A stretch of 64,000 nt of DNA from an uncultured Acidobacteriaceae bacterium (GTDB lineage: Bacteria; Acidobacteriota; Terriglobia; Terriglobales; Acidobacteriaceae): positions 110,822 to 174,821 of the forward strand of contig CAVWUF010000002.1 in assembly GCA_963758135.1 (NCBI GenBank). The letters run 5' to 3'. Below are positions 3,646 through 29,800 of this stretch, piece by piece. How positions within the stretch are numbered: position 1 is the first letter of the stretch; every line of letters starts with the position of its first letter. A program made the position numbers and the translations under genes. Under the pieces are notes generated by a model. That model searched no databases. It was given only the letters and a program-made list of their open reading frames with translations, and had not been told where the DNA came from.

Positions 3646-3658
3646 CCGGTGATCTCTC

Positions 3659-4054: not shown

Positions 4055-4082
4055 TTGACAGCCCGTTAGCAAACCCTAGGAT
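4055..4082 (+). promoter_or_regulatory. candidate sigma70-type promoter for the bcs locus
   Basis: TTGACA (4055-4060), 16-nt spacer, TAGGAT (4077-4082). It sits about 80 nt upstream of the bcsQ ATG at 4161. Sequence match only. Confidence 0.3.
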
Positions 4083-4160
4083 GACGCTCCGTTCACAAAA
4101 CACAGAAGCCGGAAGATCGAGGTTCCTGTTGCGCTCCGCAGGTGGTAAGGGGATGATGCG

Positions 4161-5642
4161 ATGAGGCAGGACCAGGACGACGTTGGCGCGGGGAAACCGG
4201 AAGGTGGTGAGCCGGCCGACGATGTCGCGACGCTGTATTCCTGGGCGAATCTGCACGGGGGCAAATACAAGGATTTCAGCGCATCGCGTGAGCAGGCGAG
4301 GGCGCAGATGCGCCAGCGGGCCCTGACGGATCAGGCGAAGGTGGCACGCGAGGAAGCGCAGAAGGGACCACCGCGGGAGAGTCCGCGATGGGACGATCTG
4401 CTGCCCGGGTGGGGCAGGCAGGCGGGGGCGGAGGGGCCGGTTCGCCACGAGATCCCGAGCGAGCAGGAAATCGAAAATCATGCGGCAAGAGAGCGGTCGA
4501 CGGGTACTTTGCCGGCTCCGGCGGAGGCAGGGGCGTCAGCGCGTGGATTGGGCGGGGCTTCGCGCGTTGGGGAAGAGCAGCCGCATGGTCGTGAGAGGGC
4601 CCAGGGGGAGCAGCGCATCGCTCCGGAGAGGCGGGCGGAGCCACCAGAAGCGGCGCCGGTGCGGCCGGCATGGCTGGCGGAGACGCTTCCCCAAGGTACG
4701 GCGCCGATTGCGGCCCCGGTGGGAGCGCCGATTGGGGCGCAGAATCCCGCGCAGCATCAAACGGCGGTTCCGGTTCCTCCGGCACGGGCGAATGAGGCGC
4801 CGCAGCCAGCGCGGGAGCGGGGTACGCCGCGGTGGTATGCGCTGCGCGGAATTTTTGGACGTGACCAGGAAGAAGTTCAGCCGGAGAACGGGGACGCTTT
4901 GGTTCCGGTGCTCACGTTTTTCTCGCTGGCGGGCGGGGTGGGCAAAACCAGCCTGGTGGCGGGCGTGGGCCGCGGTCTGGCGGGACGGGGGGAGCGTGTC
5001 CTGCTGACGGACACGAACTCGTTTGGCATCCTGCCGTTTTATTTTGGAGCGAGGGAAGTGAAGCCGGGAGTATTGCGGACGTTCAGTGGATGGACGAACG
5101 ATCCGCCGATACGGGTGCTGACACTGGAGGCGGGGCGATACGAGGCCGATCCCGATCTGCTGCGGCGGGAGATGACGCGCGGAGCTCGGGATGTGAGCCG
5201 GGTGGTGATCGATATAGGAAACGGGTCAGCGGGGATGCTGCGGCAGGCGATGCGGCTGTCGCCCACAATGGTGGTGCCGTTGGTTCCGGATTTGGCTTCG
5301 GTGGCGACGCTGCCGGCTCTGGAGACGCTTTTTCGCAACCACGACGGAATGAATGGCAAACCCCTGCAGGCGTGGTACCTGCTGAGCCAGTTCGATGTGT
5401 CGAGCGAACTGCACCATGATGTGCGGGAGGTTTTGCGGGAGCAACTGGGAGAACGGCTGCTGCCTTTCGCCGTTCGGCGAAGCGCGGCGGTAAGCGAGGC
5501 GCTGGCGGAGGGGATGACGGTGATCGATTACGCACCGAATTCGCCGGCGGCGGAAGACATGCTGGGCCTGGTCACGTGGATTCGCAGCATAGCGGTTGCG
5601 GCCGGCGGGGGACATCGTGGAGCGCGCTGGAGCGAGCGATGA
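4161..5642 (+). CDS. bcsQ: cellulose biosynthesis protein BcsQ (MinD/ParA-like ATPase) with a ~240-aa low-complexity N-terminal extension
   Basis: The C-terminal ~250 aa starts VLTFFSLAGGVGKTSLVAGVGRGLAGRGERVLLTDTN, a BcsQ/YhjQ-type deviant P-loop. The gene lies immediately upstream of, and ATGA-overlapping (5639-5642), the cellulose synthase gene. Confidence 0.8.
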   Translation: MRQDQDDVGAGKPEGGEPADDVATLYSWANLHGGKYKDFSASREQARAQMRQRALTDQAKVAREEAQKGPPRESPRWDDLLPGWGRQAGAEGPVRHEIPSEQEIENHAARERSTGTLPAPAEAGASARGLGGASRVGEEQPHGRERAQGEQRIAPERRAEPPEAAPVRPAWLAETLPQGTAPIAAPVGAPIGAQNPAQHQTAVPVPPARANEAPQPARERGTPRWYALRGIFGRDQEEVQPENGDALVPVLTFFSLAGGVGKTSLVAGVGRGLAGRGERVLLTDTNSFGILPFYFGAREVKPGVLRTFSGWTNDPPIRVLTLEAGRYEADPDLLRREMTRGARDVSRVVIDIGNGSAGMLRQAMRLSPTMVVPLVPDLASVATLPALETLFRNHDGMNGKPLQAWYLLSQFDVSSELHHDVREVLREQLGERLLPFAVRRSAAVSEALAEGMTVIDYAPNSPAAEDMLGLVTWIRSIAVAAGGGHRGARWSER

Positions 5643-8600
5643 CCCAAGCGGAAATGTGGGATGTCGTTGAGCCGGAGCGAGGGCCGGTTTTTCGGCTGAT
5701 GCGATTGGTTCTGATCGCCTTCGGCATGGTTGCGATGGTGTTCTTTGGGACGCTTGCCTTGTCGTGGCCGCAGCAGGCGGTGCTTGGGCTGCTGATTCTG
5801 CTGATTTGCGTGTGGCTGAGCCGGGTTTCGGATTCTTATCTGATCACGCTGACGCTGATGATGCTGTCGATGTTCGCGACGTTTCGCTACGCGTGGTGGC
5901 GGGTGAGCGCGATTGCGATTTTTCTCCAGGATCCGGGGAGCAAGTGGGACCGGGCGGATGTGTTTTTCATTTTTCTGCTGCTGGGCGCAGAGGTCTATGC
6001 GTTTTCCATTTTGTATCTGGGGTTTCTGCAGACGGTGTGGCCGCTGCGGCGCGCGCCGGTGCCGTTGCCGGACGATGCGGAGGACTGGCCTGAGATCGAT
6101 CTGCTGATTCCGACCTACAACGAGCCGCTGAATGTGGTGCGCTACACGGCTCTCGCTTCGCTGAATATTGACTGGCCAGCGGAGAAGCTGCACGTTTACA
6201 TCCTCGACGACGGGAACCGCGAGGAGTTTCGCGAATTCGCGCTGGAGGCGGGGATCGGCTACATGACGCGGGCCGATAACCTTCATGCGAAGGCCGGGAA
6301 CATCAATCACGCGCTGAAGAGCCTGAGCGCGCCGTACGTGGCGATCTTCGATTCCGACCACGTGCCGACGCGGAGTTTTCTGCAGATGACGGTAGGGTGG
6401 TTTTTAAGGGATCCGCGGCTGGGGATGCTGCAGACGCCGCATCATTTCTATTCGCCCGATCCGTTCGAGCGGAACCTGGGGCAGTTTCGGGTGATTCCGA
6501 ACGAAGGGGAGCTGTTTTACGGGATCGTGCAGGACGGGAACGATTTCTGGAATGCGGCATTCTTTTGCGGTTCGTGCGCGGTGTTGCGGCGCGAGGCGCT
6601 GGACGAGATCGGGGGAATTGCAGCAGAGACGGTTACAGAAGACGCGCACACCTGCCTGCGCATGCAGATTCGCGGGTGGAATACGGCGTACATCAATATT
6701 CCGCAGGCTGCGGGACTGGCGACGGAGCGGCTGTCGGCGCATGTGAAGCAGCGCATCCGGTGGGCGCGGGGGATGGTTCAGATTCTGCGGATCGAGAATC
6801 CTTTATTTGCGCCGAATCTGACGCTGGCGCAGCGGCTTTGCTATTTCAACGCGATGACGCACTTTCTGTACGCGCTGCCGCGGCTGATTTTTCTCACTGC
6901 GCCGCTCATTTATCTGATTTTCGGATTCACGAATGTGCCGGGGTACTGGATTGCGATTCTGGCTTATGCTTTGCCGCACCTGACGCTGTCGAGCGTTACG
7001 AACAGCAGGATTCAGGGCTACCATCGGCACTCGTTCTGGAACGAGATTTATGAGACGGTGCTTTCGCCGTATATTTTGCTGCCCACGCTGACGGCGCTTC
7101 TTAATCCGAAGCTGGGGAAGTTCAACGTAACGGCGAAGGGCGGTCTTGTAACGCAGACCTTCTTCGACGCGCGCATTGCGCGGCCGTTTATTGTGCTGCT
7201 GGCTTTCAACGTGCTGGGGTTGCTGATGGTGATCCCGCGCTTCGTGCATTTTCCCGGGCTGCTGGGTCCTCTGTGGGACGGAACGCATCCGGGGACGATT
7301 CTGACGAATGCGCTGTGGACTTGCTTCAACATTGTGATTCTGAGCGTGTGCGTGGCTGTGGCGCGGGAGGCGCGGCAGACGCGGCAGCATGTGCGCATCA
7401 ACTTTGCGGCACCGGTGCGGGTGCGGGTGCGGGAGGGGAGGATCGTTCCTGGGCAGACCATCGACGTATCGAGCGGCGGACTATCGATGGAGTTGCTGGA
7501 GGAGTTGCCGGCGATCCCTGGGGAAGCGCTCAAGGCGATTTTCCCGCTGCGCACCGGCGACGCGGAGCTGCCGGCCAGTGTGGTGAGCCTGACGAACGGA
7601 GTGCTGCGGCTGCAGTTCGATCCGCTGACGGTGGCCGAAGAAGAGCTGCTGACGATGGTGCTGTTTTCGCGAGCGGACTCGTGGCTGGGGTGGGGCGAGG
7701 CGCGCGAAGTGGATCAGCCGCTGCGGAGTCTGGGCCGGATTATTCAGATTGCGTTTCGCGGACTGGGGATGGCGATCGGGTCGATGAGACCTGGACGGAG
7801 TGACGGACGCAGAAGGAAGCCCTTGCCAGCGCAGAGCATGATGCTGCTTCTTGTGGTGGGCCTGGCTGCGTGGGGCACGGTGGCGAGGGCACAGAGCAAT
7901 GACGCGGGAGCGGCGGCGCAAACGCAGACGGGCGCGGCAGGCGGGGCTGCCGGGACGGGCGCAGCAGGCGGAGCGAAGAAAGAGGTCGATGACGCCGAGG
8001 GCGAGCCAGCGACGCAGGAAGGGGCACTGGCGGCCGGGACACAGAGCGCGGCGGGCGGCAACGCCGGCACTGCGAAGCCCGTGGCGGGCACTTTCAGCAC
8101 GGAGGAGAATCTTTTCGATCTGGGAGTGCCGGGGCCCATCAACCTGCGCGGGACGGACTCGTTCAACACGACGTATTTTGCGATTCCGCAGAACGAGGTG
8201 GTGAAGCAGGCGTCGATGCACGTTTACTATCACGTTTCTCCGAGCCTGATTCCGTCGCTGAGCCACATCAAAGTGATGCTGAACGGGACGTTGTTCGCAA
8301 CGTTGCCGGTTCCGGAGACACCGACCAATGGCGCGACGATCGAGCGGGATGTGGTGGTTCCGGCAGAGCTGCTGGTGCGGAACAATCAGCTGACCTTTGA
8401 GTTTATCGGGCACTACACGCAGACGTGCGAGGACCCTGAGAACTCCACGTTGTGGGCGCACGTGGATCCGAACACGCGGATCATGATTGCGGGGGATTTT
8501 CTCCCGCTGATCGACGACCTGAGGCTGTTGCCGCTGCCTTTTTTCGATGCGAAGCTGGCGCGGCCGGCGGTGATCCCTGTGGTGTTTGGAGCGGCGCCTT

Positions 8601-10186
8601 CGCTGAAGGGGCTGGAAGCGGCGGGAGTGGTCACATCCTGGTTTGGGGTTCTGGGCGACTACCGTGCGATGCGGTTTCCGGTGTCGGTGGGAACGATGGC
8701 GCCGGGCAACGTGATTCTGATCGCGGAGGGCGCGAGCGCGATGCCGCCGGGGCTGAGCGTGCCGGGTGTGGAGGCGCCGACGCTGGCGGTGCGGGTGAAT
8801 CCAGTCGATCCCTATGGGAAGGTGCTGATCGTGACGGGGGCGGACGCCGAACAGACGCTCGAGGCTGCGCAGGCGCTGGCGACGGGCTGGCCAGGACTGC
8901 AGGGAGCGACGGCCGCGGTTACCGAGCTGAATTTGCCGGCTAAGAGCAATGCGGACGATGCGCCGCGCTGGCAGGAGCCGGGTGGCAAGGCGCAGTTGTG
9001 GAACTACAGCTCGACTGATTCTCTGCAGGGAGACGGCAATGCGCCGATGACGGCGTACTACCATGTGCCGCCGGATCTGTTCTACGGGGATAAGCAGAAC
9101 GCGCTGCTGCACCTGGACTATCGCTATAACTCGATTCCTATCGGACCTATTTCGAGCATGCAGGTGGAATCGAACGATGCGTATCTGGGGTCGGTCCCGC
9201 TGATTCCCGGAAAAGAGGCCTCGAGGGATACTTCGGTGAATCTGGCGATTCCTGTGGTGAACCTGCGGCCGTTCTCGAACTCGATGAAGTTCATGCTGAC
9301 GTTTGAACTGGTGAAGAGCGGGAATTGTCAGGATACGACGCCCATCAATTTGATGGGGTCGATCCTGAGGAGCTCGTATCTGGATCTGAGCGGGCTGCCG
9401 CACTGGGCCGCGATGCCGAATCTGGAGTTGTTCTCGAATGCGGGATTTCCATTCACGCGGTTTGCGGACCTGAGCCAGACGGAAATTGTGTTGCCGGAGC
9501 AGCCGTCGCAACAGGAGATTGAGATTTACCTGACGATGATGGGGCACTTCGGCGCCGAGACTGGTTATCCCGCGCTTCGTGTCACGGTGGCGGGTCCGGA
9601 GGCACTGCGTGCGGGCGCGGCGGAAGATTTTTTGGTGATCACGACGGGGCAGAGCAACGGGGCCGTGGGAAAACTGGCGGCGGGGATGCCGGTGACGTTC
9701 GGGGAACACAGCCTCAAGGTGCAGGACACGCGTGGATTCTTCTCGATGTTTCACAATATGTGGTGGAAGATACCGGCGACGGATCAATTGTCTTCCGGAG
9801 AGATTGGAACGAACGGGGTTCCGGATGCGCTGATCGAGGAGATTGAGTCGCCGTATGCGAGCGGGCGGACGGTGGTGCTGATCGACATGAAGAGCGCGGC
9901 AAACTTCGAGCCGATGATGAAGTCGTTCATGGAAAGCTCACAATCGAGCGCGGTGTCGGGAACCGTGGCCCTGCTGGAAGGGACGCATTTCGAGAGCTAC
10001 CGGATCGGCAACAATGTGTATCATGTCGGAGTTCTGCCGTGGTGGACGGCGCTGGGGTTGTGGTTTACGCAGGTTCCCTGGATGGTGGACCTGGTGGTTT
10101 TGGCAATCAGCTTCGTTTTCGCGATCTGGATACGGGGGTGGTTGCGTGCGCAGGCGCGGCGGCGGCTCCAGGTGATGGAGGGATAG
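5639..10186 (+). CDS. bcsA: cellulose synthase catalytic subunit BcsA fused in frame to the periplasmic subunit BcsB
   Basis: GT2 signatures are present: LDDGNREEF, FDSDHVP, TEDAHT, QRIRWARG (QxxRW). PilZ motifs RQTRQHVR and DVSSGG follow. Then come the TM-like MMLLLVVGLAAWGTVARA, an A/G-rich linker and about 730 aa of BcsB-like sequence with a C-terminal TM anchor. No stop codon separates the parts. The likely start is ATG 5639 (track ORF starts at 5576). Confidence 0.9.
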   Translation: MTQAEMWDVVEPERGPVFRLMRLVLIAFGMVAMVFFGTLALSWPQQAVLGLLILLICVWLSRVSDSYLITLTLMMLSMFATFRYAWWRVSAIAIFLQDPGSKWDRADVFFIFLLLGAEVYAFSILYLGFLQTVWPLRRAPVPLPDDAEDWPEIDLLIPTYNEPLNVVRYTALASLNIDWPAEKLHVYILDDGNREEFREFALEAGIGYMTRADNLHAKAGNINHALKSLSAPYVAIFDSDHVPTRSFLQMTVGWFLRDPRLGMLQTPHHFYSPDPFERNLGQFRVIPNEGELFYGIVQDGNDFWNAAFFCGSCAVLRREALDEIGGIAAETVTEDAHTCLRMQIRGWNTAYINIPQAAGLATERLSAHVKQRIRWARGMVQILRIENPLFAPNLTLAQRLCYFNAMTHFLYALPRLIFLTAPLIYLIFGFTNVPGYWIAILAYALPHLTLSSVTNSRIQGYHRHSFWNEIYETVLSPYILLPTLTALLNPKLGKFNVTAKGGLVTQTFFDARIARPFIVLLAFNVLGLLMVIPRFVHFPGLLGPLWDGTHPGTILTNALWTCFNIVILSVCVAVAREARQTRQHVRINFAAPVRVRVREGRIVPGQTIDVSSGGLSMELLEELPAIPGEALKAIFPLRTGDAELPASVVSLTNGVLRLQFDPLTVAEEELLTMVLFSRADSWLGWGEAREVDQPLRSLGRIIQIAFRGLGMAIGSMRPGRSDGRRRKPLPAQSMMLLLVVGLAAWGTVARAQSNDAGAAAQTQTGAAGGAAGTGAAGGAKKEVDDAEGEPATQEGALAAGTQSAAGGNAGTAKPVAGTFSTEENLFDLGVPGPINLRGTDSFNTTYFAIPQNEVVKQASMHVYYHVSPSLIPSLSHIKVMLNGTLFATLPVPETPTNGATIERDVVVPAELLVRNNQLTFEFIGHYTQTCEDPENSTLWAHVDPNTRIMIAGDFLPLIDDLRLLPLPFFDAKLARPAVIPVVFGAAPSLKGLEAAGVVTSWFGVLGDYRAMRFPVSVGTMAPGNVILIAEGASAMPPGLSVPGVEAPTLAVRVNPVDPYGKVLIVTGADAEQTLEAAQALATGWPGLQGATAAVTELNLPAKSNADDAPRWQEPGGKAQLWNYSSTDSLQGDGNAPMTAYYHVPPDLFYGDKQNALLHLDYRYNSIPIGPISSMQVESNDAYLGSVPLIPGKEASRDTSVNLAIPVVNLRPFSNSMKFMLTFELVKSGNCQDTTPINLMGSILRSSYLDLSGLPHWAAMPNLELFSNAGFPFTRFADLSQTEIVLPEQPSQQEIEIYLTMMGHFGAETGYPALRVTVAGPEALRAGAAEDFLVITTGQSNGAVGKLAAGMPVTFGEHSLKVQDTRGFFSMFHNMWWKIPATDQLSSGEIGTNGVPDALIEEIESPYASGRTVVLIDMKSAANFEPMMKSFMESSQSSAVSGTVALLEGTHFESYRIGNNVYHVGVLPWWTALGLWFTQVPWMVDLVVLAISFVFAIWIRGWLRAQARRRLQVMEG

Positions 10187-10350
10187 ACACGGGTTGAGAG
10201 CCTGAATCGAGCCCGGCGGTTCAGGCTTCGATTTGCACAGATTCGCGCGGGGGCGGGCGCAAACTGTAGTTGCATCTGCTGCGTTGGATGGCGAAGATGG
10301 ATTCACAGTCGAATCGCTGAAGTGAGGACCCTTCGTTGAGAGGCAAGGGC

Positions 10351-13300
10351 ATGTTCCGCACGCTGGTGAGGTTCTTGAGCCTGGCTGCGGTTCTTTGCCT
10401 GGGCGCGGGGCCGTTGCAGGGGCAATCCGCGGCGGAGAAGGCGCTGCTCGAGAAGGCGCGATCTCTGGACCAGTCGGGGCACCTCGACCTGGCGGCGCAG
10501 ACCTGGCAACAGATTCTTCTTTCCGATCCTAATAATCAGGATGCGCTGGCAGGGCTGGGACGTTGGGCGAAGCTGAGCGGGAACGACGCGGAAGCGGAGA
10601 CCTACATCGAGCGCCTGCGGGCTGTGAATCCGAACAGCCCGGAGATTGCGAAGATCCAGGCGCTGGTGAGCAGCAAGGCACAGAACCAGTTGCTGCAGCA
10701 GGCCGCGGAGCTCGCGAGGAACGGGCACAACGAAGAGGCACTGAAAATCTACCGGCAGGCGTTCGGGGAACATCCACCGGACAACTGGGCGCTGGCGTAT
10801 TACGACGCGGAGGCGGGGGTTCCGTCGATGCGGCCAGACGCTGTCAATGGCCTCAAGAGGCTGGTAGTGAAGTATCCGAGCGACTCGCAGTATTCGATCG
10901 ATCTGGGGCGCGTGCTCAGCTACGATGCTTCGACGCGGGCCGAGGGGGAGAGGATTCTGAGCCAATATCCGCAGGATGCGGCGGCGCAGGCGGCGCTGCG
11001 GGCGGCGCTGGTGTGGGATGTGCAGAATCCGGCGTCGTGGGCGGCGGTTCGGCAATATCTGAAGCTGCATCCCGATCCTGAACTGGCGAAGGAACTGGCG
11101 GAGACGGAGGCGCGGCAGGCGACCGCAATGACGGGGATTGCGCGGACCGCGGCGGAGCAGGCGGCGTTCCGGCAACTGGCGGCGAATCATCTGGCAGTGG
11201 CGGAGGCGGCGTTTGCCGCACTGAATGCTCAGCAGCCGGCGAATCCGCGGGTGCTGGCGGGGCTCGGCTTTGTGCGGATGAAGCAGAGCAATTTCAGCGA
11301 GGCGGTGCAGTTCTTCGAGCAGGCCGAGGCGAACGGACTCCGCAGCCCTCTGATCGCGGTGTCGCTGTGGACTTCCCGGTTCTGGAACGCGATGCAGCAG
11401 GGCACCGAGGCGCTGAACGCGAACCGGCTGGATGAGGCGGTGAAACAGTACAAGGCGGCGCTCGCGCTGCGACCATTGAGCGTGGACGCGCTGATCGGGG
11501 AAGCCGGCGCTTACATGAAGATGCAGGAGCCGGAGCAGGCGGTTCCGCTGTATCGGCAGCTGGTTCGCCGGCAGCCGAGACTGGCGGCGGCATGGATTGG
11601 GCTGGTGTCAGCCGAGACCGAGGCTGGACAGGGGAAAGCGGCGATCGCGACGGCGAGGCAGTTTCCGCCAGCGGTGCGAAGGAGTGCGGCGAAGGATCCG
11701 GCATACTTGCAGACTCTGGCCAGGGCGTATGTGGAAGCTGGGCAGAATGCGCAGGCAGAGCGCAGTCTGGCGCAGGCGATGAACCTGCATTATGGGGCAA
11801 GCCAGGAGAATCTCAAGACCGGGATTGCCTTGCAGTATGCAGCTCTGTTGGGGCAGGACAAGAACTATGCGCAGGCGGCGACGATCTACCGCGGAGTTCT
11901 GCACGGCGATCCGAATAACGTGAGTGCATGGCAGGGGATGGTATCGCTGGAGCATCTGGCGGGACGCGACGCGGATGCGATTGCGATGGTCGAGCGGATG
12001 CCGCCCGAGGCTTACGACAGCGCGCTGCGGGACGGAGGCTTCCTGTCGATGCTGGCGGCGATTTATCAGAGCCAGAATCATCCGGATGTTGCGGAGGGGT
12101 TTCTGGAGCGCGCGATCAGGATTTATGAGGGCAATGGGCAGCCGTTGCCGATTCCTCTGCAACTGCAGGTGGCGGCGGTCGATCTGGAACGTAATCATCC
12201 AGACGCGGCGTACCGGATTTACCGGAGCGTGCTGACGGAGCATCCGGGGAGGCTGGATGCGTGGAAGGGTCTGCTGGCGGCGATGCACGCGACGGATCAC
12301 GACACGGATGCGCTGGCGCAGATTCAACAGATACCGCCGGCGGTACGGAAGGCGCTGGCGACAGACGTAGAGTACGAGCAGACGCTCGCGGCCATCTACG
12401 CGGCGAATGGCGATGAGCGCGGAGCGTTGGCGTTGCTGACGGAAGTGGAGGACTACTACCGGGGCGAGGGCCGTATGGCGCCGGTGAATGTCGACATCGA
12501 GGATGCGTGGACGCTGTTCAATGTGGGCGACGATCGAGAACTTTACCGGCAGTTGATGAGGCTGGGCGATCGCCAGGGCATGACGGACGACGAGCGGCGC
12601 GAGGTGCAGACGATCTGGGCGTCGTGGGCGCAGCGAAGAGCGGCGCAGGCGGCAGCGGCTGGGAATCCGCGGCGCGCGGTCGACATACTGATGGCGGCGG
12701 CAGCGGCGTTTCCTGGGAACCCGGCGGTGAGCAAGGCACTGGCGGTGGGATTTGTGCAGGCTGGGCAGCCGAAGGATGCCATGGCAATCTACCAGGCGCT
12801 GGATATGACGAATGCATCAGCTTCGGATTATCAGAGCATGGTGGGCGCGGCGGTGGCCGTCGAGAACATGAAGCAGGCGGAGGCGTGGCTGCGGCTGGGG
12901 CTGCAGAAATTCCCGAACGATCCGAAGGTGCTGGCAGCGGCGGCGCAATTCGAGCAGGCGCGCGGAGATCGCGCGAAGGCTGAAGACTACTGGAGGGCTT
13001 CGCTGAAGGCGATGCCGCCAGTTTCTCCGGCGACAAATCTGGCGCACCAGCTGGACCAGCCGGACGTGGTGAAGCAGACGAGGCCGGGCAAGCCGTCTGA
13101 TCTGGTGGACCTGCTGAATCCGGACAGAGAGCCGGGGATGGAGGCAGGCGGCAGCGCGGTGGCGTTGCCGAGTTACAGCAACCCGAATCCGAGCCGGGCG
13201 AGCGCTCAACAGTATGGGCCCGATCCTTATTACATGGGGACGGCTCCGGTTGAGATCAACAACGGAGCTGGGCAGAAGCCTGAGGGGAACGGCGAGCTGC

Positions 13301-15102
13301 CGGATCCGCTTGTGTTTTCCCCGGCTCCTTCGACTGGCGGTGCGGGGCTTGGGAGTGGGTCGGGCGTGTCTGCGGCAGGGACCGCGGGCGGGGCATCTGC
13401 AGGGAGCGGCGCGACTGCTCGGCCCGCGACGACGACACGCACGACTCACGGTAAGGCGAAGCCGGACACGACACCGGGATCAAAGCCGGGGACGAAAGCG
13501 CCAAAGCCATCGCCGGTGAAGCCGTATGTTCCGCAGGCGTCGGCGCCAGCGAGTAATGGGGGAACCCGAGCTGGCATTCCGGTGGAACAGCCTCAGGAGC
13601 TTGGACTGGAGACAGGTCCGGCGCTGAGGTCGCTGCCGAATGCGGGGGATGCGGGGACGCAGGCGCGAGCAGCGCTCGATACGGCGAAGAAGCCGGTCGA
13701 TCCATCGATGGCTTCGACCCAGTACGACGCGCAAGGCAAGGAGATTGAACCGGAGCCGGAACCAGGAGCTCCATCGAGCGAGCAAAAGCCGGATTATTTC
13801 GAGCGGCCTCCGGCCCCGAGTGGCGGCGCGACGGACGATGACCTGATGCGGGAGAATCTGCCGCCGCTGCGTGGGCCTTATGAGCGCCCGGCGATTGTAC
13901 GGCAGCAGAATTTGCGGGAGCAGGCGCAGATGCAGCTGGGGTACATCATGGCTGGGTATAGTCCGTGGCTGGGTGGCACCGGGTTTGTGAATCATCGCAG
14001 CGGGACGGCAGGGTTCGATTCGCTCACCGCGCTGGACGCGCCGTTCGAGGCTTCGGCGTCGCTGGGCCGGGGCGCGAGGATCACGGTTGTTTCGAACCCG
14101 GTGTTTCTGGATTCGGGTGCGCCAACCACGTCGCCGATACTTCCAGGGGGCGTCGTGGAGCGGCTGGGCACGGCGCCGGCTAGCGCTGTGCTGAACCAGC
14201 AGAACGCGACGGGCATAGGCGGCGAGGTGCAGCTGGCGACTTCGAATTTCGCCGTGAGCGGCGGTTATTCGCCGTATGGATTTCTGGTTTCGAATGTGAT
14301 TGGAAGGCTGAACTGGAAGCCGGCGAACGGGCCATTTACGTTTACGGCTACTCGCGATTCGATCAAGGATTCGCAGCTATCGTATTCGGGTTTGCACGAT
14401 CCGGGGTCGGCGGGGCCTGGATACGAGGGGAACACCTGGGGCGGAGTGATCGCGACCGGCGGAGATGTGCAGTTCGGCGCCAGCCAGCCCAACTCCGGAT
14501 TTTATGTCAGCGGCGGTGGGCAGTACATCAACGGCGTTCACGTCCAGACCAATCACCGGTACGAGGGAGACGCAGGCGCTTACTGGCGGGTGAAGGAGGT
14601 TCCCGACGAAGGCAACCTGACGCTGGGTGTCAATTTCTTCGGGATGCACTATACGTATAACTCGAATTTCTTCACCTATGGTCAGGGTGGGTACTTCAGC
14701 CCGCAGGCTTACTACCTGGCAGACGTGCCGTTCTCCTTCCAGGGGCGATATGGGGCGAACGTTCACTATAGCGTGGTCGCGGCATTTGGGGTTGAGGCAT
14801 TCCAGCAGGATAGCGCGCCGTTTTTCCCGCTGGATACCGCGCTCGAGGTTGGGAATAACAATCCCTCCTATTCCGCGGAGACGGTGGTGAGCGGGAACTA
14901 CGACTTTCACGGCGAGATGGCCTATCACCTGAGCGATCACTGGTTCGCGGGGGGCTTTCTGGCGCTGAACAACACGCGGAACTACGACAACCAGGTGGTT
15001 GGGTTCTTCGTGCGGTGGGATTCGAAGGAACAGAGGGAATCGGACCTCGGGCCTACGGGCCTTTATCCCTGGGATGGGTTGCGGCCTTATCTGGCTCCTT
15101 AG
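10351..15102 (+). CDS. bcsC: cellulose synthase operon protein BcsC (TPR array plus C-terminal outer-membrane beta-barrel)
   Basis: Signal peptide MFRTLVRFLSLAAVLCLGAGPLQG. About 900 aa of TPR repeats, a ~280-aa P/G/S/T-rich insert, then a beta-barrel-like C-terminus (GYSPWLGGTGFVNHRSG ... GFFVRWD). Alternative TTG start at 10336. Confidence 0.85.
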   Translation: MFRTLVRFLSLAAVLCLGAGPLQGQSAAEKALLEKARSLDQSGHLDLAAQTWQQILLSDPNNQDALAGLGRWAKLSGNDAEAETYIERLRAVNPNSPEIAKIQALVSSKAQNQLLQQAAELARNGHNEEALKIYRQAFGEHPPDNWALAYYDAEAGVPSMRPDAVNGLKRLVVKYPSDSQYSIDLGRVLSYDASTRAEGERILSQYPQDAAAQAALRAALVWDVQNPASWAAVRQYLKLHPDPELAKELAETEARQATAMTGIARTAAEQAAFRQLAANHLAVAEAAFAALNAQQPANPRVLAGLGFVRMKQSNFSEAVQFFEQAEANGLRSPLIAVSLWTSRFWNAMQQGTEALNANRLDEAVKQYKAALALRPLSVDALIGEAGAYMKMQEPEQAVPLYRQLVRRQPRLAAAWIGLVSAETEAGQGKAAIATARQFPPAVRRSAAKDPAYLQTLARAYVEAGQNAQAERSLAQAMNLHYGASQENLKTGIALQYAALLGQDKNYAQAATIYRGVLHGDPNNVSAWQGMVSLEHLAGRDADAIAMVERMPPEAYDSALRDGGFLSMLAAIYQSQNHPDVAEGFLERAIRIYEGNGQPLPIPLQLQVAAVDLERNHPDAAYRIYRSVLTEHPGRLDAWKGLLAAMHATDHDTDALAQIQQIPPAVRKALATDVEYEQTLAAIYAANGDERGALALLTEVEDYYRGEGRMAPVNVDIEDAWTLFNVGDDRELYRQLMRLGDRQGMTDDERREVQTIWASWAQRRAAQAAAAGNPRRAVDILMAAAAAFPGNPAVSKALAVGFVQAGQPKDAMAIYQALDMTNASASDYQSMVGAAVAVENMKQAEAWLRLGLQKFPNDPKVLAAAAQFEQARGDRAKAEDYWRASLKAMPPVSPATNLAHQLDQPDVVKQTRPGKPSDLVDLLNPDREPGMEAGGSAVALPSYSNPNPSRASAQQYGPDPYYMGTAPVEINNGAGQKPEGNGELPDPLVFSPAPSTGGAGLGSGSGVSAAGTAGGASAGSGATARPATTTRTTHGKAKPDTTPGSKPGTKAPKPSPVKPYVPQASAPASNGGTRAGIPVEQPQELGLETGPALRSLPNAGDAGTQARAALDTAKKPVDPSMASTQYDAQGKEIEPEPEPGAPSSEQKPDYFERPPAPSGGATDDDLMRENLPPLRGPYERPAIVRQQNLREQAQMQLGYIMAGYSPWLGGTGFVNHRSGTAGFDSLTALDAPFEASASLGRGARITVVSNPVFLDSGAPTTSPILPGGVVERLGTAPASAVLNQQNATGIGGEVQLATSNFAVSGGYSPYGFLVSNVIGRLNWKPANGPFTFTATRDSIKDSQLSYSGLHDPGSAGPGYEGNTWGGVIATGGDVQFGASQPNSGFYVSGGGQYINGVHVQTNHRYEGDAGAYWRVKEVPDEGNLTLGVNFFGMHYTYNSNFFTYGQGGYFSPQAYYLADVPFSFQGRYGANVHYSVVAAFGVEAFQQDSAPFFPLDTALEVGNNNPSYSAETVVSGNYDFHGEMAYHLSDHWFAGGFLALNNTRNYDNQVVGFFVRWDSKEQRESDLGPTGLYPWDGLRPYLAP

Positions 15103-15323
15103 GCGTAACTCAAGCGAAAACGTGCATGGCAGGGAGGTTATGCCCGCCCTATCACCAGCGCATGCGCGATAGGGCCGAGCAAGGCGTGTAGCGAAATTTT
15201 ATCTTGCATAAGTGGCCCCGGAGGACTTACAAAGAGGGAACATCATTCCCCCAAATAGCCATTGCGGATGCTGAGGTATCCGTGTGGAATTTCGGAATTA
15301 TCGTCCGAATTGCGAGGCCTGCC

Positions 15324-17348
15324 GTGGTTCGATCGCTGCGTCGCCCCTGTTTATTTCCGATCGTTTGTCTACTCCTGGCCGCGTCGATCCGGGCGTTTGG
15401 CGCTCCCACCTGGACCGATCCCACCCCCGACGAACTGAAGATGACCACCGATCCGGCAGCCCCGGATGCGCCCGCGATCTTTCTCTTCCGCGAGGAGACG
15501 GTGGACGATAACCTCCACTACCACCGCCTCTACGCGCGGATCAAGATTCTGACGGAAAAGGGGAAGCAGGACTACAGCGATGTAGAGATTCCCTATGAAG
15601 CCGGGGTCGCGAATGTTCGGGCTGTGGAGGGGCGCACGATCCATTCCGATGGAACGGTGATTCCGTTCAGCGGCAAGCCTTACAGCAAGGAGCTGCAGAA
15701 GAACGGCGAGCAGAAGATCATGGCGAAGGTCTTCAGCATGCCGGACGTACAGGTCGGCAGCATTCTGGAATACCGGTATGACCTCGAATACGAAGATAAC
15801 TGGTACATGCCGCCGTACTGGTACATCCAGCAGCCGGTTTTTGTGCGCAAGGCGCATTATCACTTCGTCCCATTGAATCTGGCTGCCACTTTTAAGGTTC
15901 TGACGAGTAAGGATGCGTTTGGGAAAGAAACAGTGGCGAACCGGCTGCTTTTCTATGCGGGGCTGCCGCCGGGCGTGAAAGTGCGGGAAGGGATGGATGG
16001 GTATGACCTCGCCGTAGACAACATTCCGCCGCTCGCGCACGAGGAATTCTCGCCCCCGCTGGATAGCTATTCCTACCGGCTGATCTTCTACTACTCCGAA
16101 GCGTCGGGCGAGGTGGACTTCTGGAAGGCGGAGGCGAAAGTCTGGGCAAAGGATGTGGATCGGTTTGCCAACCCGTCGGACAAGATAAGGCAGGCGGTGG
16201 CAGGAATTGTGGCCCCCGGGGACACGGACGATCAGAAGCTGCGCAAGATTTATGCCGCTGTGATGGCTTTGGAGAACACACGGTTCACACGAGAGCACTC
16301 GCAGGCGGAGAACAAGGCGGCGGGGTTGCGCGTGAAGACCGCGAGCGACATCTGGGAGCAAAAAAGGGGAAGCGACGACGAACTCGCGCGGCTGTTCATT
16401 TCGATGGCGCGGGCCGCGGGGTTCAAGGCTTATGCGATGGCGGTGACGGAGCGGGACCGCAATGCACTGAACCCGGGATATCTGGACTGGGGGCAGTTCG
16501 AAGATGAGATCGCGATTGTGAACGTGGGGGGCAAGGATGTGCTTTTCGATCCTGGGCAGCGTTACTGCGAATACGGGAAGCTGCACTGGATGCACACGCA
16601 GGTGGTCGGTATCCGGCAGAACGACAACGGCGGGGGAGTGCTGGAGACACCGTCGGCGGGCTACCAGGATAACCCTATACATCGGATGGCCGATCTGGAG
16701 TTGAGCGGCGACGGGACCCTGAAGGGGACCATACGCGTCACGATGAATGGCGCGGATGCGCTGCGCTGGCGGCAGGAGGCGCTGCGCTCCGACGAAGAGG
16801 AAGTGAAGAAGGATTTCGATGAGGTGATGCGGCGCGAGGTTCCGGACGGCGTCCAGGTAAAGACGAGTCACTTCGTGGGGTTGACCGACAGCACAGCCGG
16901 GCTGATGGTGGTAGCCGATGTGAGCGGGAGCCTGGGCACGCGCACTGGAAAGCGGGTGGTGCTGCCGAGCGCGTTTTTCGAGGCGAGAACCAGGCCATTG
17001 TTCGCCGAAGAGAAGCGGGAGAACCCTGTGGACCTGCGCTATCCGTACATTGCGCAGGACAGCGTGAGTCTGAAGCTGGCGCCGGGTTTGACGGTGGAGA
17101 GCCTCCCCAACAAGTCTGAGTTCACGATGAAGCAGGCAGCGGCCTACAAGGCGAGTTACAGCTTCAAGGACAACGCCTACACTCAGGAACGGGTTCTGGC
17201 GGTGGGGCTCACTCGTTATAAGAAAGAGGAGTATCCACAGCTGCGCGATTTCTTTCAAAAGACGGGAGCCCAGGACCAGGAACAACTGGTGCTGAAGCAG
17301 GCCGCGGTGACGGCCACTGCGGCTGGTGGCTCGGGACAAAGCGAGTAA
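15324..17348 (+). CDS. DUF3857 / transglutaminase-like / DUF3858-type secreted protein, paralogue 1 (catalytic Cys and His absent)
   Basis: Track ORF 15204..17348. GTG 15324 gives the signal peptide VRSLRRPCLFPIVCLLLAASIRAFGA. N-terminal DUF3857-like region (YHRLYARIKILTEKGK ... PDVQVGSILEYRY). The transglutaminase-core position reads KRGSDDELARLFISMARAAGFKA. Confidence 0.75.
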   Translation: MVRSLRRPCLFPIVCLLLAASIRAFGAPTWTDPTPDELKMTTDPAAPDAPAIFLFREETVDDNLHYHRLYARIKILTEKGKQDYSDVEIPYEAGVANVRAVEGRTIHSDGTVIPFSGKPYSKELQKNGEQKIMAKVFSMPDVQVGSILEYRYDLEYEDNWYMPPYWYIQQPVFVRKAHYHFVPLNLAATFKVLTSKDAFGKETVANRLLFYAGLPPGVKVREGMDGYDLAVDNIPPLAHEEFSPPLDSYSYRLIFYYSEASGEVDFWKAEAKVWAKDVDRFANPSDKIRQAVAGIVAPGDTDDQKLRKIYAAVMALENTRFTREHSQAENKAAGLRVKTASDIWEQKRGSDDELARLFISMARAAGFKAYAMAVTERDRNALNPGYLDWGQFEDEIAIVNVGGKDVLFDPGQRYCEYGKLHWMHTQVVGIRQNDNGGGVLETPSAGYQDNPIHRMADLELSGDGTLKGTIRVTMNGADALRWRQEALRSDEEEVKKDFDEVMRREVPDGVQVKTSHFVGLTDSTAGLMVVADVSGSLGTRTGKRVVLPSAFFEARTRPLFAEEKRENPVDLRYPYIAQDSVSLKLAPGLTVESLPNKSEFTMKQAAAYKASYSFKDNAYTQERVLAVGLTRYKKEEYPQLRDFFQKTGAQDQEQLVLKQAAVTATAAGGSGQSE

Positions 17349-17383
17349 GCAACAGGTTCTTGTTTAATTTTGGGGTCAATGCT

Positions 17384-19399
17384 ATGGGATTTGCGATGCG
17401 CCGTTCCTGTCTGCTGTTGAGTCTGCTTTTTGGCCTGCCTTCTTTTGGAGCCACGAACTGGAGGCAGCCGACCCAGGAAGAGTTGCAAATGACCTCGGAC
17501 CCGAAGGCTCCGGATGCCCCTGCGGTGTATCTGAACCGTGATGAGTACATGGATGTGAAAGGACATTACGATCGTATTTATGCGCGCATCAAGATTCTGA
17601 CCGAAAAAGGAAGGATTCAGTTCAGCGACGTCGAGATTCCCTATCGGGCTGGAGTGCTGAACGTAAGGGGCCTTGAGGGACGGACCATCCACAGCGACGG
17701 CACGATTATTCCGTTCTCGGGCCAGGCTTACAGCAAGGAACTGGTGAAGACCGGGGGCGTGCGGGTGATGGCAAGAGTCTTCAGCATGCCGGATGTGCAG
17801 GTGGGCAGCATTCTGGAGTATCAGTTTGAGCTGCAGTACGACGATCGCTGGATCTTCTGGCCGGAATGGACGCTGCAGGAGCGGGCTTTCGTGCACGATG
17901 CGCATTACCATTTCATACCGGCGCCGCTGGATGTGAACAGCACCTATGAGATTGCGGTACCCGATCCGCAGGGGAAGCTGACACCCGCGACCCGCTTGCA
18001 ATACGATGCGTCACTGCCGCCGGGAGCAAAGCTGCAGGACCTGCCGAGCGGGACCGATCTGGTGATGAAGGATGTGCCGCCGATTCCTGACGAGCCTTAT
18101 TCGCCGCCATTAGACAGCTTCTCGTACCGGCTCTTTTACTACTACACGGGAAACTATACAGCTCAGGATTACTGGAAGGGCGCGGGAAAGAGCTGGTCAC
18201 AGAAACTGGACAAGTTCGCGACTACGTCGGATGCGATCAACAAGGCTGTGGCGGGAATTGTGGCGCCGGCGGACACCGAAGACCAGAAGCTGAAGAAGAT
18301 CTATGCCGCGGTGATGACGATAGAGAATACGCAGTTCACGCGCAAGCATTCCGACGAGGAGAAGAAGGCGGAGGGAGTACAGGTCAAGACCGCAGCGGAC
18401 ATCTGGGGACAGAAGCGTGGGACGCCGAACGAAATTACACGTTTGTTCATTGCCATGACGCGGGCCGCCGGGCTGAAGGCTGCGGCAATGATCGTAACCG
18501 AGCGCGACCAGCGCGTATTGAATGCCAACTACCTGCACTGGGATCAGCTGACGGATGAAATTGCCATTGTGACGGTTGGCGGCAAAGAGGTCTACCTCGA
18601 TCCTGGGCAGCGGTACTGCGATTACGGCAAGCTGCACTGGAAGCACACGCAGGTGTTGGGAATCCGGCAGACAGAGGGCGGCACGGAGGCGGTCCTGACT
18701 CCCGCTGCGGATTATAAGGACAGCGTGGTGGAGCGCAAGGCAGCGTTGCAGCTGGGACCCGACGGGAAGATCGACGGGACGGTCACGCTTTCGATGACGG
18801 GCGTGGAAGCTCTGCGTTGGCGGCAGGTTGCGCTTCGCGACGACGAGGATGAGGCAAAGAAGCAGATTGGAGATGAACTACAGCAGCTGGTTCCGGATGG
18901 GGTGCGCGTGAAAACGACAGGCTTGACGGGACTTGCCGACTTTTCGCAGCCGCTGGTTGCGACGCTGGGGGTGAGCGGCAGCATGGGCACGGCGACGGGA
19001 AAGAGAATCCTGCTGCCGAGTGCGTTCTTCGAGGCCAATGCAAAGCCGCTGTTCCCCGAGCAGAGGCGTGAGAATCCGGTGGATATGCACTACCCCAGCG
19101 CGGTGCGCGACTCGGTGAAGGTCACGCTGGCGCCGGGATTGACGGTGGGGAGCGTTCCGGCGAACGCGCAGATCCCGTTTCCGAAGAGCGCCGAATACGT
19201 TGCGAAGTATGCGGGTTCCGGCAGCACTTACCAGCAGGCTCGGCTGATGGCGCTGGGCAAAACGGTTTACAGCAAAGAGGAGTATCCGGAGCTGCGCGAT
19301 TTTCTTCAGAAGACGGGCGCGCAGGATCAGCAGCAGGTGGTGCTGGAGCGAGCGCCGGTTGCCGCCAGCGCGGCAGGTGGATCAGGAGCGAATGAATGA
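17384..19399 (+). CDS. DUF3857 / transglutaminase-like secreted protein, paralogue 2 (catalytic Cys and His absent)
   Basis: Colinear with paralogue 1 along its whole length. Signal peptide MGFAMRRSCLLLSLLFGLPSFGA. The core position reads KRGTPNEITRLFIAMTRAAGLKA. Start uncertain: 17360, 17384 or 17396. Confidence 0.75.
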   Translation: MGFAMRRSCLLLSLLFGLPSFGATNWRQPTQEELQMTSDPKAPDAPAVYLNRDEYMDVKGHYDRIYARIKILTEKGRIQFSDVEIPYRAGVLNVRGLEGRTIHSDGTIIPFSGQAYSKELVKTGGVRVMARVFSMPDVQVGSILEYQFELQYDDRWIFWPEWTLQERAFVHDAHYHFIPAPLDVNSTYEIAVPDPQGKLTPATRLQYDASLPPGAKLQDLPSGTDLVMKDVPPIPDEPYSPPLDSFSYRLFYYYTGNYTAQDYWKGAGKSWSQKLDKFATTSDAINKAVAGIVAPADTEDQKLKKIYAAVMTIENTQFTRKHSDEEKKAEGVQVKTAADIWGQKRGTPNEITRLFIAMTRAAGLKAAAMIVTERDQRVLNANYLHWDQLTDEIAIVTVGGKEVYLDPGQRYCDYGKLHWKHTQVLGIRQTEGGTEAVLTPAADYKDSVVERKAALQLGPDGKIDGTVTLSMTGVEALRWRQVALRDDEDEAKKQIGDELQQLVPDGVRVKTTGLTGLADFSQPLVATLGVSGSMGTATGKRILLPSAFFEANAKPLFPEQRRENPVDMHYPSAVRDSVKVTLAPGLTVGSVPANAQIPFPKSAEYVAKYAGSGSTYQQARLMALGKTVYSKEEYPELRDFLQKTGAQDQQQVVLERAPVAASAAGGSGANE

Positions 19400-21459
19400 G
19401 GGATCGGGATAAGGATCAAAGATCGGAGCTCAGAGCACAGAAATCGTCGCTCGATGATCGCCGGGCCGGGAAGGCGGAGCGGCCCGCCATGCGGGCCACA
19501 GTTGTTTGGGCGGGCGCCCTGCTGGTGCTGGGATGCGCGGGCGCCGCACACGCGTCGAAGGATGTGCAGCTGCCGGACTGGGTGACGCAGGCGGCGACCG
19601 ATGCTCCGCTGAAGGCGGAGTGGCGGGATGCGAAGGCGGTGTATCTGCTGGAAGACACGCTGGTGAGTTTTGACTCCGGCGGGCGGGTGGTGGAGCGCTA
19701 TCGCGCGGTGGTAAAGATTCTGCGGCCGCAGGGGCGGGAGTATGCGCACCCGTCGGCCTGGTTTTCTAAGGATGAAAAGCTCGAGTCTTTTCATGTATGG
19801 AGCATTGGGCAGGACGGGCATCATTATGCGATGAAGGACGCAGAATATGTCGAGACGGGCGATGTAGGCGCAGGGGAAGGCGTTCTCTATGGGGATTTGC
19901 GGGCGAGGATAGCATCGCCGCCGGGAGCCGACCCGGGCGGAGTGGTGGCGTGGGAATTCGTCAAGCAGTTGCCGCCGTATTTTGCCGAGGACACATGGGG
20001 ATTTCAGAATCCGGTGCCGACGGTTCGGTCAGTATACGAGCTTGATTTGCCGGCGGGGTGGCATGAGGAGGCGGTTTGGTCGCGGCATCCGCGCATTGAG
20101 CCAGCGCAGACGATGCCCGGTCACTTTCGGTGGGAACAAACGAATATCGACGGAATCGATTTAACCGATGTACCGCTGGCGCCGGAGTGGGCGTCTCTGG
20201 CGGGGAGGATGACGGTGCATTTCGGGTCGGATCCGCTGCCGGAGGGGGACGCACTGTGGTCGAAGATCGGCAACTGGTATTACAACCTGGCGGCGCCGCG
20301 AAGCGAGGGTGGGGGAGAGGTGGCGACCACGGCGCGGACGCTGGCCGCGGATGGCGACTTCATGGCGCGGTTGACGAAGGTCGCCGACTTTATGCAGCAA
20401 CAGATTCGATATGTGGCGGTGGAGATCGGCATTGGAGGATGGCAGCCGCACGCGGCGCAGGATATTTTCCGGAGCCGGTATGGAGATTGCAAGGACAAGG
20501 CAACGCTGACGGTGGCTATGCTGGACGCGGTAGGAATTCGCGCGGGGTGGGTGAGCGTAGACGTCCGGCGGGGAGTGATCGATCCGGATGCGCCTTCTCT
20601 TTTCGGCAACCACATGATTGCGGCGATCGAGATTCCGAAGGGGTATGAGAACCCACGGCTGCAGGCGGTGGTGACGACGCATTCGGGGAGACGTTATCTG
20701 ATCTTCGATCCGACGAATCCGTATGTGCCGGTGGGGCAGTTGCCGGACTATGAACAGGGCAGCTATGGAGTGCTGGCGGCGGGGGAGGACAGCCAGCTGA
20801 TCCATCTGCCGATTCTGAATCCGGATGCGGAGTCGATCGATCGGAAGGCCAAATTTGAACTGGCAGGGGATGGAACGCTCAGCGGAGACATCACGGTGCT
20901 TCGTTATGGAGCGCTGTCGGACCGGATGCGGGGCCGCTTGGCGATGGGCACGGACAAGGACCAGCGGGAGCTGGTGGAGCGATCGCTGCAACGGGATTTT
21001 TCGACGTTCACGCTGGGCAGCGAGAAGGTGGCGCATGTACGCGAGCTGGACCAGCCGCTGGAGATGGATTACCAGGTAACGGCGCCGCTCTACGCAAAAA
21101 CAGCAGGGGGCTTGCTATTGGTGCGGCCGCGGGTCGTTGGCAGCGATGCGGAGGGTCTGGACGACAAGCCGCGCAAGGTACCGATCAGTTTTGAAGGGGT
21201 GGGGACGTGGCGGGACGATTTCGACGTGAAGATTCCGGCGGGATACGCCGTGGACGATATGCCCGATCCAGTGAGCATGGATGTTGGATTCGCGACCTAC
21301 CACAGCGAAGTGAAGGCCGAGGGCGGCGCACTGCATTACAAGCGCGAATATGTGCTCAAGAAGGTGGAACTGGAGCCTGGGGAGTACGCGAGGCTGCGCA
21401 AGCTGGAGGCAGCGATTGCGGCGGATGAGAACAGCGACGCGGTGCTGAAGAAGCAGTAG
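19396..21459 (+). CDS. DUF3857 / transglutaminase-like secreted protein, paralogue 3 (Cys-His-Asp triad intact)
   Basis: Core motifs RYGDCKDKATLTVAMLDAVGIRAGW, GNHMIAAIE and LIFDPTNP match a transglutaminase/cysteine-protease fold. ATG 19396 overlaps the previous stop as ATGA. Alternative start ATG 19489 lies just before the signal peptide MRATVVWAGALLVLGCAGAAHA and has GGAG 9 nt upstream. Confidence 0.75.
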   Translation: MRDRDKDQRSELRAQKSSLDDRRAGKAERPAMRATVVWAGALLVLGCAGAAHASKDVQLPDWVTQAATDAPLKAEWRDAKAVYLLEDTLVSFDSGGRVVERYRAVVKILRPQGREYAHPSAWFSKDEKLESFHVWSIGQDGHHYAMKDAEYVETGDVGAGEGVLYGDLRARIASPPGADPGGVVAWEFVKQLPPYFAEDTWGFQNPVPTVRSVYELDLPAGWHEEAVWSRHPRIEPAQTMPGHFRWEQTNIDGIDLTDVPLAPEWASLAGRMTVHFGSDPLPEGDALWSKIGNWYYNLAAPRSEGGGEVATTARTLAADGDFMARLTKVADFMQQQIRYVAVEIGIGGWQPHAAQDIFRSRYGDCKDKATLTVAMLDAVGIRAGWVSVDVRRGVIDPDAPSLFGNHMIAAIEIPKGYENPRLQAVVTTHSGRRYLIFDPTNPYVPVGQLPDYEQGSYGVLAAGEDSQLIHLPILNPDAESIDRKAKFELAGDGTLSGDITVLRYGALSDRMRGRLAMGTDKDQRELVERSLQRDFSTFTLGSEKVAHVRELDQPLEMDYQVTAPLYAKTAGGLLLVRPRVVGSDAEGLDDKPRKVPISFEGVGTWRDDFDVKIPAGYAVDDMPDPVSMDVGFATYHSEVKAEGGALHYKREYVLKKVELEPGEYARLRKLEAAIAADENSDAVLKKQ

Positions 21460-21484
21460 GGGATATCAGAAGTTCGCCAAAAAG

Positions 21485-21514
21485 AAGAGGCGGCTCCTCG
21501 GCCGCCTCTTTTGC
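21485..21514. terminator. rho-independent terminator between convergent genes (probably bidirectional)
   Basis: Perfect 10-bp stem aagaggcggc (21485-21494) / gccgcctctt (21501-21510) with a 6-nt loop. A T-run follows on the plus strand and an A-run precedes it. Confidence 0.7.
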
Positions 21515-21528
21515 CTGCTGAAGCCGGA

Positions 21529-29778: not shown

Positions 29779-29800
29779 TTTCGTTGTCCTGAATTCTCCT

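Follow-up and report, generated by a model that had tools for sequence, protein, structure and literature searches.

The Acidobacteriaceae are abundant, poorly studied soil bacteria. The cellulose synthesis locus published for acidobacteria has the gene order bcsQ-bcsAB-bcsZ-bcsC (Rawat et al. 2012; Naumoff et al. 2022, PMC9693552), and the bcs genes of Acidisarcina polymorpha, like those described here, include no bcsZ but are preceded by a GH5 gene 5' of bcsQ (PMC9693552). Here we describe a bcs locus in a stretch of 64,000 nucleotides (nt) from an uncultured Acidobacteriaceae bacterium, referred to below as the window, the source names of its homologues agreeing with this placement. Six open reading frames (ORFs) on one strand occupy positions 4161-21459; three of them are bcsQ, a fused bcsAB and bcsC, and the other three, designated P1, P2 and P3, code for proteins with DUF3857 and transglutaminase-like domains. 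A preliminary description of this DNA had listed the same six genes, which Pfam, NCBIfam and a near-identical public contig (L001, with gene calls at identical coordinates, bcsC included) all confirmed, and had proposed that P1-P3 are co-transcribed accessory factors of the Bcs system. Comparison with about 150 related loci, seeded separately from the DUF3857 genes and from bcsC, suggests instead that the region probably consists of two neighbouring but separable units, a bcs operon without bcsZ and an autonomous, family-wide DUF3857 operon for secreted proteins with the fold of Protein Data Bank (PDB) entry 3KD4.

The bcs genes of the window resemble the published acidobacterial locus (PMC9693552) in the order bcsQ, fused bcsAB, bcsC, in the intact motifs of the BcsA and PilZ domains and in a BcsC made of TPR repeats and a barrel. 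BcsQ (gene at 4161..5642, + strand) was matched by Pfam CBP_BcsQ with 68 bits and by TIGR03371 with 147 bits, the latter under its cut-off of 157.85, and this MinD/ParA-type ATPase domain comprises residues 249-476. The preceding N-terminal extension of 248 amino acids (aa; 4161-4904), rich in Pro, Ala, Arg and Gly, had no Pfam match, and because BcsQ matches of similar full length are found in relatives (L079, L081, L088, L089 and L094) it seems to be conserved in this lineage. The bcsAB fusion (5639..10186, + strand) overlaps bcsQ in an ATGA at 5639-5642, as had been noted previously, and codes for 1515 aa. Its BcsA part matches TIGR03030 (CelA) with 799 bits against a cut-off of 699 and holds GT2 and PilZ domains with the motifs HAKAGN, DSD, FFCGS, TED and QRIRW and, in PilZ, RQHVR and DVSSGG; its BcsB part matches PF03170 with 584 bits across residues 846-1436, and a hydrophobic segment at residue 1472 agrees with a C-terminal membrane anchor. 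BcsC (10351..15102, + strand) has a signal peptide, multiple TPR repeats and a PF05420 (BCSC_C) match of 281 bits. From these matches, bcsAB is predicted to encode the fused catalytic and periplasmic co-catalytic subunits of a cyclic di-GMP (c-di-GMP)-dependent cellulose synthase, and BcsC would be a TPR-rich periplasmic scaffold with an outer-membrane beta-barrel export porin.

The window differs from the published locus (PMC9693552) in having no bcsZ. The gap between bcsAB and bcsC is 165 nt, and a tblastn search with acidobacterial BcsZ found no GH8 gene in the 64-kb window (best E 0.41), while a GH8 gene of about 1.15 kb stands at the bcsAB-bcsC position in the deeper-branching relatives L067, L073, L090 and L097 and is also kept there in most of the distant acidobacterial bcs loci, which together indicate that bcsZ was lost in the clade of the window. 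None of the scanned flanking genes of the window is a Bcs component either, in agreement with the earlier statement that bcsZ, bcsD and bcsE/F/G are absent. In comparison with Acidisarcina polymorpha, the genes 5' of bcsQ in the window are those of an outer-membrane protein and a STAND NTPase. The DUF3857 genes were considered as a replacement for bcsZ, and this was rejected because loci with both exist. The existence of a bcsZ-less clade of acidobacterial bcs operons bears on the need for a periplasmic cellulase in cellulose export in these bacteria.

An alignment of P1-type proteins (P1, its tandem paralogue P2 and their relatives) was scanned against one genome per GTDB species and gave 76 loci, all of them from Acidobacteriaceae or Terriglobales, onto which the window proteins were mapped by tblastn. 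One, two, three, four and five P1-type copies were present in 52, 15, 6, 2 and 1 loci respectively, and a P3-type gene lay 3' of the P1-type genes in 66 of the 69 loci with enough downstream sequence; the conserved unit, hereafter the module, is made up of P1-type genes, one to five in number, and a single P3-type gene after them. Lone P1-type genes without a P3 partner were also seen (L028, L071 and L075), as was a second complete module in some genomes (e.g. L041 and L043 of one metagenome-assembled genome), so that within genomes the family is growing in number and spreading.

The neighbourhood upstream of the module proved to be far less constant than the module itself. At the 62 loci with at least 3 kb 5' of the module, bcsC was found upstream in only 24 and no bcs was found upstream in the other 38, absence here meaning that no bcsC was detected in the fetched upstream sequence of the locus. 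The loci without bcs had no conserved upstream partner (the best shared ORF family was present in only 6 of them); in Silvibacterium bohemicum, for example, ATP-grasp and GalT genes lie upstream of the module, and a literature search on bcs in Silvibacterium returned nothing useful. Downstream, a convergent pair of kdpD-N and histidine kinase genes (kdpD-N/HK) was found in 38 of 56 loci, the distance from the P3 stop codon often being 30 nt or less. This pair serves as a control for plain synteny, because convergent genes can have no common transcript with the module and yet they adjoin it more often than bcs does.

The converse comparison, in which a BcsC barrel alignment was used to search metagenomes, gave 80 loci, of which the 49 with at least 2.5 kb 3' of bcsC were counted. 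The module followed bcsC in 11 of these and was missing downstream in 38, and its presence depended on relatedness to the window: 9/13 loci at more than 65% BcsC_C identity, 2/2 at 55-65%, 0/26 at 45-55% and 0/8 below 45%, or 11/15 close bcs loci against 0/34 distant ones. Four loci with BcsC 76-77% identical to that of the window (L084 and L086-L088) have no module, and in one of these (L088, 76%) a DeoC gene and an M1 peptidase gene follow bcsC; in L124, L126 and L132 the convergent kdpD-N/HK pair directly adjoins bcsC with no module between.

Where bcsC and the module do occur together, unrelated genes may interrupt the junction. In L073 and L090 this is a Big_2 lipoprotein gene, and in L040 and L067 it is a gene for a secreted protein of 277-289 aa ("gene X"), whose occurrence in so few loci makes it uninformative. 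L040 (Paracidobacterium acidisoli) has a BcsC-like gene (6090-8921, TPR and barrel, 50% identity) upstream of its module and no bcsAB in the fetched upstream sequence, and this gene may be the remnant of a decayed bcs operon. All four combinations of presence and absence of bcs and module were thus found within a backbone of bcs, module and kdpD-N/HK. The synteny check proposed in the preliminary description therefore shows a linkage of bcsC to the DUF3857 genes that is partial and broken in both directions, without the consistent co-occurrence and adjacency with bcs (24/62 and 11/49) by which an accessory factor would be recognised.

Alignment of the bcsC-P1 intergenic region from 15 loci gave a second line of evidence that the module is a unit of its own. 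The half on the bcsC side, in the window a variable spacer at 15103..15203 (+ strand), could not be aligned, whereas about 140 nt beside P1 are conserved and contain, in order, an A/T-rich tract, TTGCAT, a variable spacer of 17-18 nt, TA(C/A)AAA, a leader with a 7-bp stem, GAGG and the GTG start codon. In the window this promoter-like element lies at 15204..15233 (+ strand; TTGCAT at 15204-15209, an 18-nt spacer and TACAAA at 15228-15233), and the Shine-Dalgarno sequence GAGG of P1 at 15314-15317 precedes the GTG at 15324. In its general form, TTGCNN-N17/18-TAnnAA, the motif stands approximately 120 nt 5' of the P1 orthologue, giving a leader of approximately 90 nt. Strict matches to it number 27 in the 4.46 Mb of fetched loci; 23 of these lie 110-180 nt 5' of a P1-type gene, as located by its high-scoring segment pair, and a further 3, including that of the window, also precede a P1 start. 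A relaxed form (TTGNNN-N16-19-TANNA[AT] at -140..-105) was present in 27 of 49 loci without detected bcsC, against 0.18 expected (P ~5e-53). The motif keeps its distance to the P1 orthologue where an extra paralogue stands next to bcsC (L008, L014, L068 and L081), is found behind many unrelated upstream genes in either orientation and never precedes P2 or P3, the 35-nt gap between P1 and P2 (a spacing already given in the preliminary description) containing no such motif. As the hexamers are conserved while the spacer sequence is free, and as the distance to P1 is fixed whatever the upstream gene, the element resembles a promoter and we regard it as a putative promoter of the module.

TTGCAT was also inspected as a possible sigma-54 site, which was rejected as there is no GG at -24. 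A scan for the sigma-70 consensus alone gave a promoter-like site 5' of bcsQ, TTGACA-16-TAGGAT at 4055..4082 (+ strand; 10/12 matches), which is weak since consensus sites of this kind are as numerous in the region as in shuffled sequence. The stem in the P1 leader, a stem-loop or palindrome of 7 bp at 15264..15283 (+ strand), reads GCGGAUG...UAUCCGU in the window and is also written GCGGAUU...AAUCCGU with orthologous leaders; RNAalifold on 16 leaders gave 7 pairs which are mostly invariant or show G-U changes, with almost no covariation. It may form a hairpin in the RNA or serve as a binding site for a protein, and no RNA element is claimed here, the stem being conserved with almost no compensatory changes. 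At no junction did a permissive Rfam scan (3500-22600) detect a riboswitch or another known RNA.

Downstream of P3, the first strong terminator of the region, which the preliminary description had placed at nearly the same position, lies at 21483..21512 and consists of a 13-bp G+C-rich stem with a flanking A-run and T-run (-25.3 kcal/mol, z -3.7); it is predicted to act in both directions, for P3 and for a convergent CsgG-like gene. Between bcsC and P1 there is, as had been stated, just a weak hairpin, at 15147-15174, in which a stem of 7 bp closes a loop of 14 nt and which lacks a T-tract; the predicted folding of 15103-15200 is not more stable than that of shuffled sequences (z +0.34). The preliminary description had itself offered an independent promoter and terminator between bcsC and the DUF3857 genes as what would argue against it; a promoter-like motif was found at P1, but a terminator after bcsC was not.

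Several observations weigh against a full separation of the two units. Of 22 related loci examined, only L097 has a canonical terminator after bcsC; neither the other 21 nor the window has an intrinsic one before P1, and so read-through from bcs into P1-P3 is plausible and may supplement transcription from the putative promoter of P1. TTGCAT agrees with E. coli TTGACA at only 3/6 positions and the -10 hexamer with its E. coli consensus at 4/6, and the generic sigma-70 scan did not flag this site, which was found only through phylogenetic footprinting. On a tree of P3 proteins the bcs-linked loci are scattered and include deep branches (L067, L030, L040 and L073); the adjacency of bcs and module is therefore old and has been retained in several lineages, and it was probably ancestral and lost repeatedly. 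The structure models considered below, from which the fold of the module proteins is taken, are also only moderate.

The products of the module are less alike than had been supposed. P1 (15324-17348), P2 (17384..19399) and P3 (19396..21459, all + strand), with P2 and P3 overlapping in an ATGA at 19396-19399 as previously noted, each have an N-terminal signal peptide and, above the respective cut-offs, an N-terminal PF12969 (DUF3857) match of 35-58 bits followed by PF01841 (Transglut_core) at 25-28 bits, just above its cut-off of 23 bits. The earlier account of three secreted DUF3857/transglutaminase-like proteins therefore stands for domains and signal peptides, but the trio is heterogeneous, as P1 and P2 are 57% identical while P3 is only 21% identical to P1, and P1 and P2 have neither the catalytic Cys nor the catalytic His. 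In P3 the motifs YGDCKDKATL, GNH and FDPTN, and with them the Cys-His-Asp triad C334, H375 and D407 (numbered from a start at 19489), are invariant in 16 orthologues. Profile-profile alignment placed Asp in P1 and Pro in P2 at the Cys position, which is variable across the P1-type family; no His aligns with the catalytic one in P1-type proteins and only the triad Asp is kept. On these residues P1 and P2 appear to be catalytically dead, of pseudoenzyme type, and P3 is the probable active enzyme of the module. In comparison with the transglutaminase-like cysteine peptidases of PF01841, the P3 triad is in the expected order and inside the Transglut_core match, but the P3 sequence is compatible with proteolysis, transamidation or deamidation. 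No carbohydrate-binding domain was found in P1-P3 with Pfam.

Orthologues show no conservation of the N-terminal 30-45 residues of the long P3 ORF, and so the true start may be the ATG at 19489 (MRATVVWAG..., with a signal peptide) rather than the ATG that overlaps P2. The 31 codons 5' of ATG 19489 are unconserved in orthologues, and this alternative start codon lies within a G+C-rich hairpin, GGCCCGCCATGCGGGCC, at 19481-19497.

When P3 and a P1 profile were compared with PDB sequences nothing useful was found, and a fold search was needed. With AlphaFold models of P1 and P3 of moderate confidence (predicted local distance difference test scores, pLDDT, of 67-69), the best Foldseek match in the PDB for both was 3KD4, in each case full-length (E 2e-24 with P1, 1e-24 with P3; target-normalised TM-scores 0.45-0.47). 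This entry, BDI_1141 from Parabacteroides distasonis, is described as a "putative protease" and is the founding structure for DUF3857/DUF3858. The predicted P1 and P3 structures share with it a three-domain layout with a central transglutaminase-like core, but they are only 13-14% identical to it, a similarity undetectable by sequence, and P1 and P2 differ in having no triad Cys and His.

That P1-P3 might be lineage-specific accessory factors for cellulose, expressed in part by read-through from bcsC and processing envelope or matrix proteins of the cellulose layer, is the explanation closest to the preliminary description, and several features of the window speak for it: the six genes lie on one strand with no terminator 3' of bcsC, all three DUF3857 proteins have signal peptides, and bcsZ has been lost in this clade. 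Among close bcs loci 11 of 15 keep the adjacency, which several deep-branching lineages of the P3 tree also show. These features have to be set against the 38/62 modules without bcs upstream and the 38/49 bcs loci without the module, the conservation of the promoter-like element whatever lies upstream, the insertion of unrelated genes into the junction at four loci (L040, L067, L073 and L090), an adjacency to bcs that is weaker than that to the convergent kdpD-N/HK pair, and the finding that Pfam shows no carbohydrate-binding domain in any of the three proteins; bcsZ may also persist beside the module (L067, L073, L090 and L097), so that the module is no bcsZ substitute. We therefore consider this explanation unlikely, and a true cellulose-accessory role for P1-P3, however expressed, is unlikely to very unlikely; a functional link of the module to cellulose is unsupported. 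A related and unlikely version is that the module is a system for processing proteins of the envelope or matrix and that its ancestral place beside bcs reflects a real partnership; proteins might, for instance, be trimmed by it or cross-linked into the sheath or saccular envelope, based on cellulose, of some Acidobacteriaceae, with read-through from bcsC coupling expression where the two are linked. If this were true, the module would be a new kind of Bcs-associated accessory.

Two further explanations concern the flanks of the module rather than cellulose. The element 5' of P1 might be a site acting on RNA (in processing, stability or translation control) within a longer transcript begun upstream, which would agree with the conserved 7-bp leader stem and its G-U pairs, with the missing upstream terminator and with the poor fit of the hexamers to the sigma-70 consensus. 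A pair of conserved hexamers with a spacer free to vary and an A/T-rich tract in front nevertheless has the look of a promoter, the unrelated upstream genes of either orientation make a common upstream transcript unlikely and the stem has almost no covariation, and so we regard an RNA-level site as improbable. A working connection of the module with the convergent split sensor kinase (KdpD-N/Usp and HAMP-PAS-HK), for example with the kinase regulating the module or the module as an envelope-stress output of the kinase, is suggested by the 38/56 loci with this pair downstream, often separated by no more than 30 nt from the P3 stop. As the genes are convergent they are not co-transcribed, in L124, L126 and L132, which have no module there, the pair stands directly 3' of bcsC, variable genes (CsgG-like and others) come between module and kinase and no response regulator is adjacent, all of which make this highly improbable.

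The reading as two separable units, which we prefer, can be put as follows. The first unit, bcsQ-bcsAB-bcsC (4161-15102), would be a complete operon for c-di-GMP-activated cellulose synthesis and export, of the acidobacterial type minus bcsZ. The second, P1-P2-P3 (15204-21512), would have its own promoter-like element, leader of approximately 90 nt, Shine-Dalgarno sequence and terminator, and is conserved across the Acidobacteriaceae. Its products would be exported by Sec and adopt the three-domain 3KD4 fold, with DUF3857, a transglutaminase-like core and a C-terminal domain; P3 may be a cysteine peptidase or transamidase of the periplasm or envelope and the dead P1-type paralogues may be its substrate-binding or regulatory partners. 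The adjacency of bcs and the module would then be an inherited order within a syntenic block of bcs, DUF3857 module and convergent kdpD-N/HK, with no dedicated cellulose role.

The novelty of this is low, the families and the genomic context being known ones. It matters for annotation, as neighbourhood alone would mislabel the DUF3857 genes as cellulose accessory factors where comparison shows them to be a unit of their own, and it provides a defined module, widespread in Acidobacteriaceae and made of one to five apparently dead copies, one apparently intact enzyme and a family-wide promoter-like element and leader, as a target for functional work.

Other features of the window were also recorded. 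Upstream of bcsQ, a STAND NTPase-TPR gene (69-2285) and a gene for a MetA-pathway-type outer-membrane protein (2317-3645) lie in a segment (1-4000) with a G+C content of 0.575, lower than in the rest of the window, and a GC skew near zero, which may be acquired or inverted DNA directly 5' of bcsQ. The + strand has an unusually strong skew of +0.17 to +0.24 from approximately 4 kb to 38 kb regardless of the coding strand, which flips near 38500-39500 to -0.13 to -0.23 from approximately 39.5 kb on; because this switch looks like that of converging replication arms, the replication terminus is probably within the window.

Downstream of the module, a CsgG/FlgT_C-like lipoprotein gene (21529-22518, - strand) converges on P3 and uses the same bidirectional terminator; only approximately 9 related loci have it, as a variable insertion that separates P3 from kdpD-N. 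It is followed at 22727-25705 (- strand) by a KdpD-N and Usp gene and then a HAMP-PAS-HisKA-HATPase kinase gene, which look like a split KdpD sensor and are the most constant neighbour of the DUF3857 module. A LarE/LarC/LarB-like set with NAD_synthase-like, Ni_insertion and AIRC domains (28909-31935, + strand) suggests synthesis of the nickel-pincer cofactor. Three giant secreted proteins of 2614, 1293 and 1703 aa, probable adhesins or surface proteins, are encoded in tandem at 42162-59962 (+ strand) and contain beta-helix, He_PIG, Ig-like and Tectonin repeats.

Within the library searched, no paper was found to connect bcsC with transglutaminase-like proteins, and DUF3857 was mentioned in just two. 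To our knowledge, no catalogued Bcs subunit has a DUF3857 domain or a transglutaminase fold. The accessory subunits catalogued by Romling and Galperin in 2015 are said to be BcsD, E, F, G, H, O, P, R, S, Z and K. The DUF3857 genes of the window are like the genes of these catalogued subunits in standing beside the core bcs genes, directly 3' of bcsC and on the same strand, but they are unlike them in that their linkage to bcs is neither general nor exclusive.

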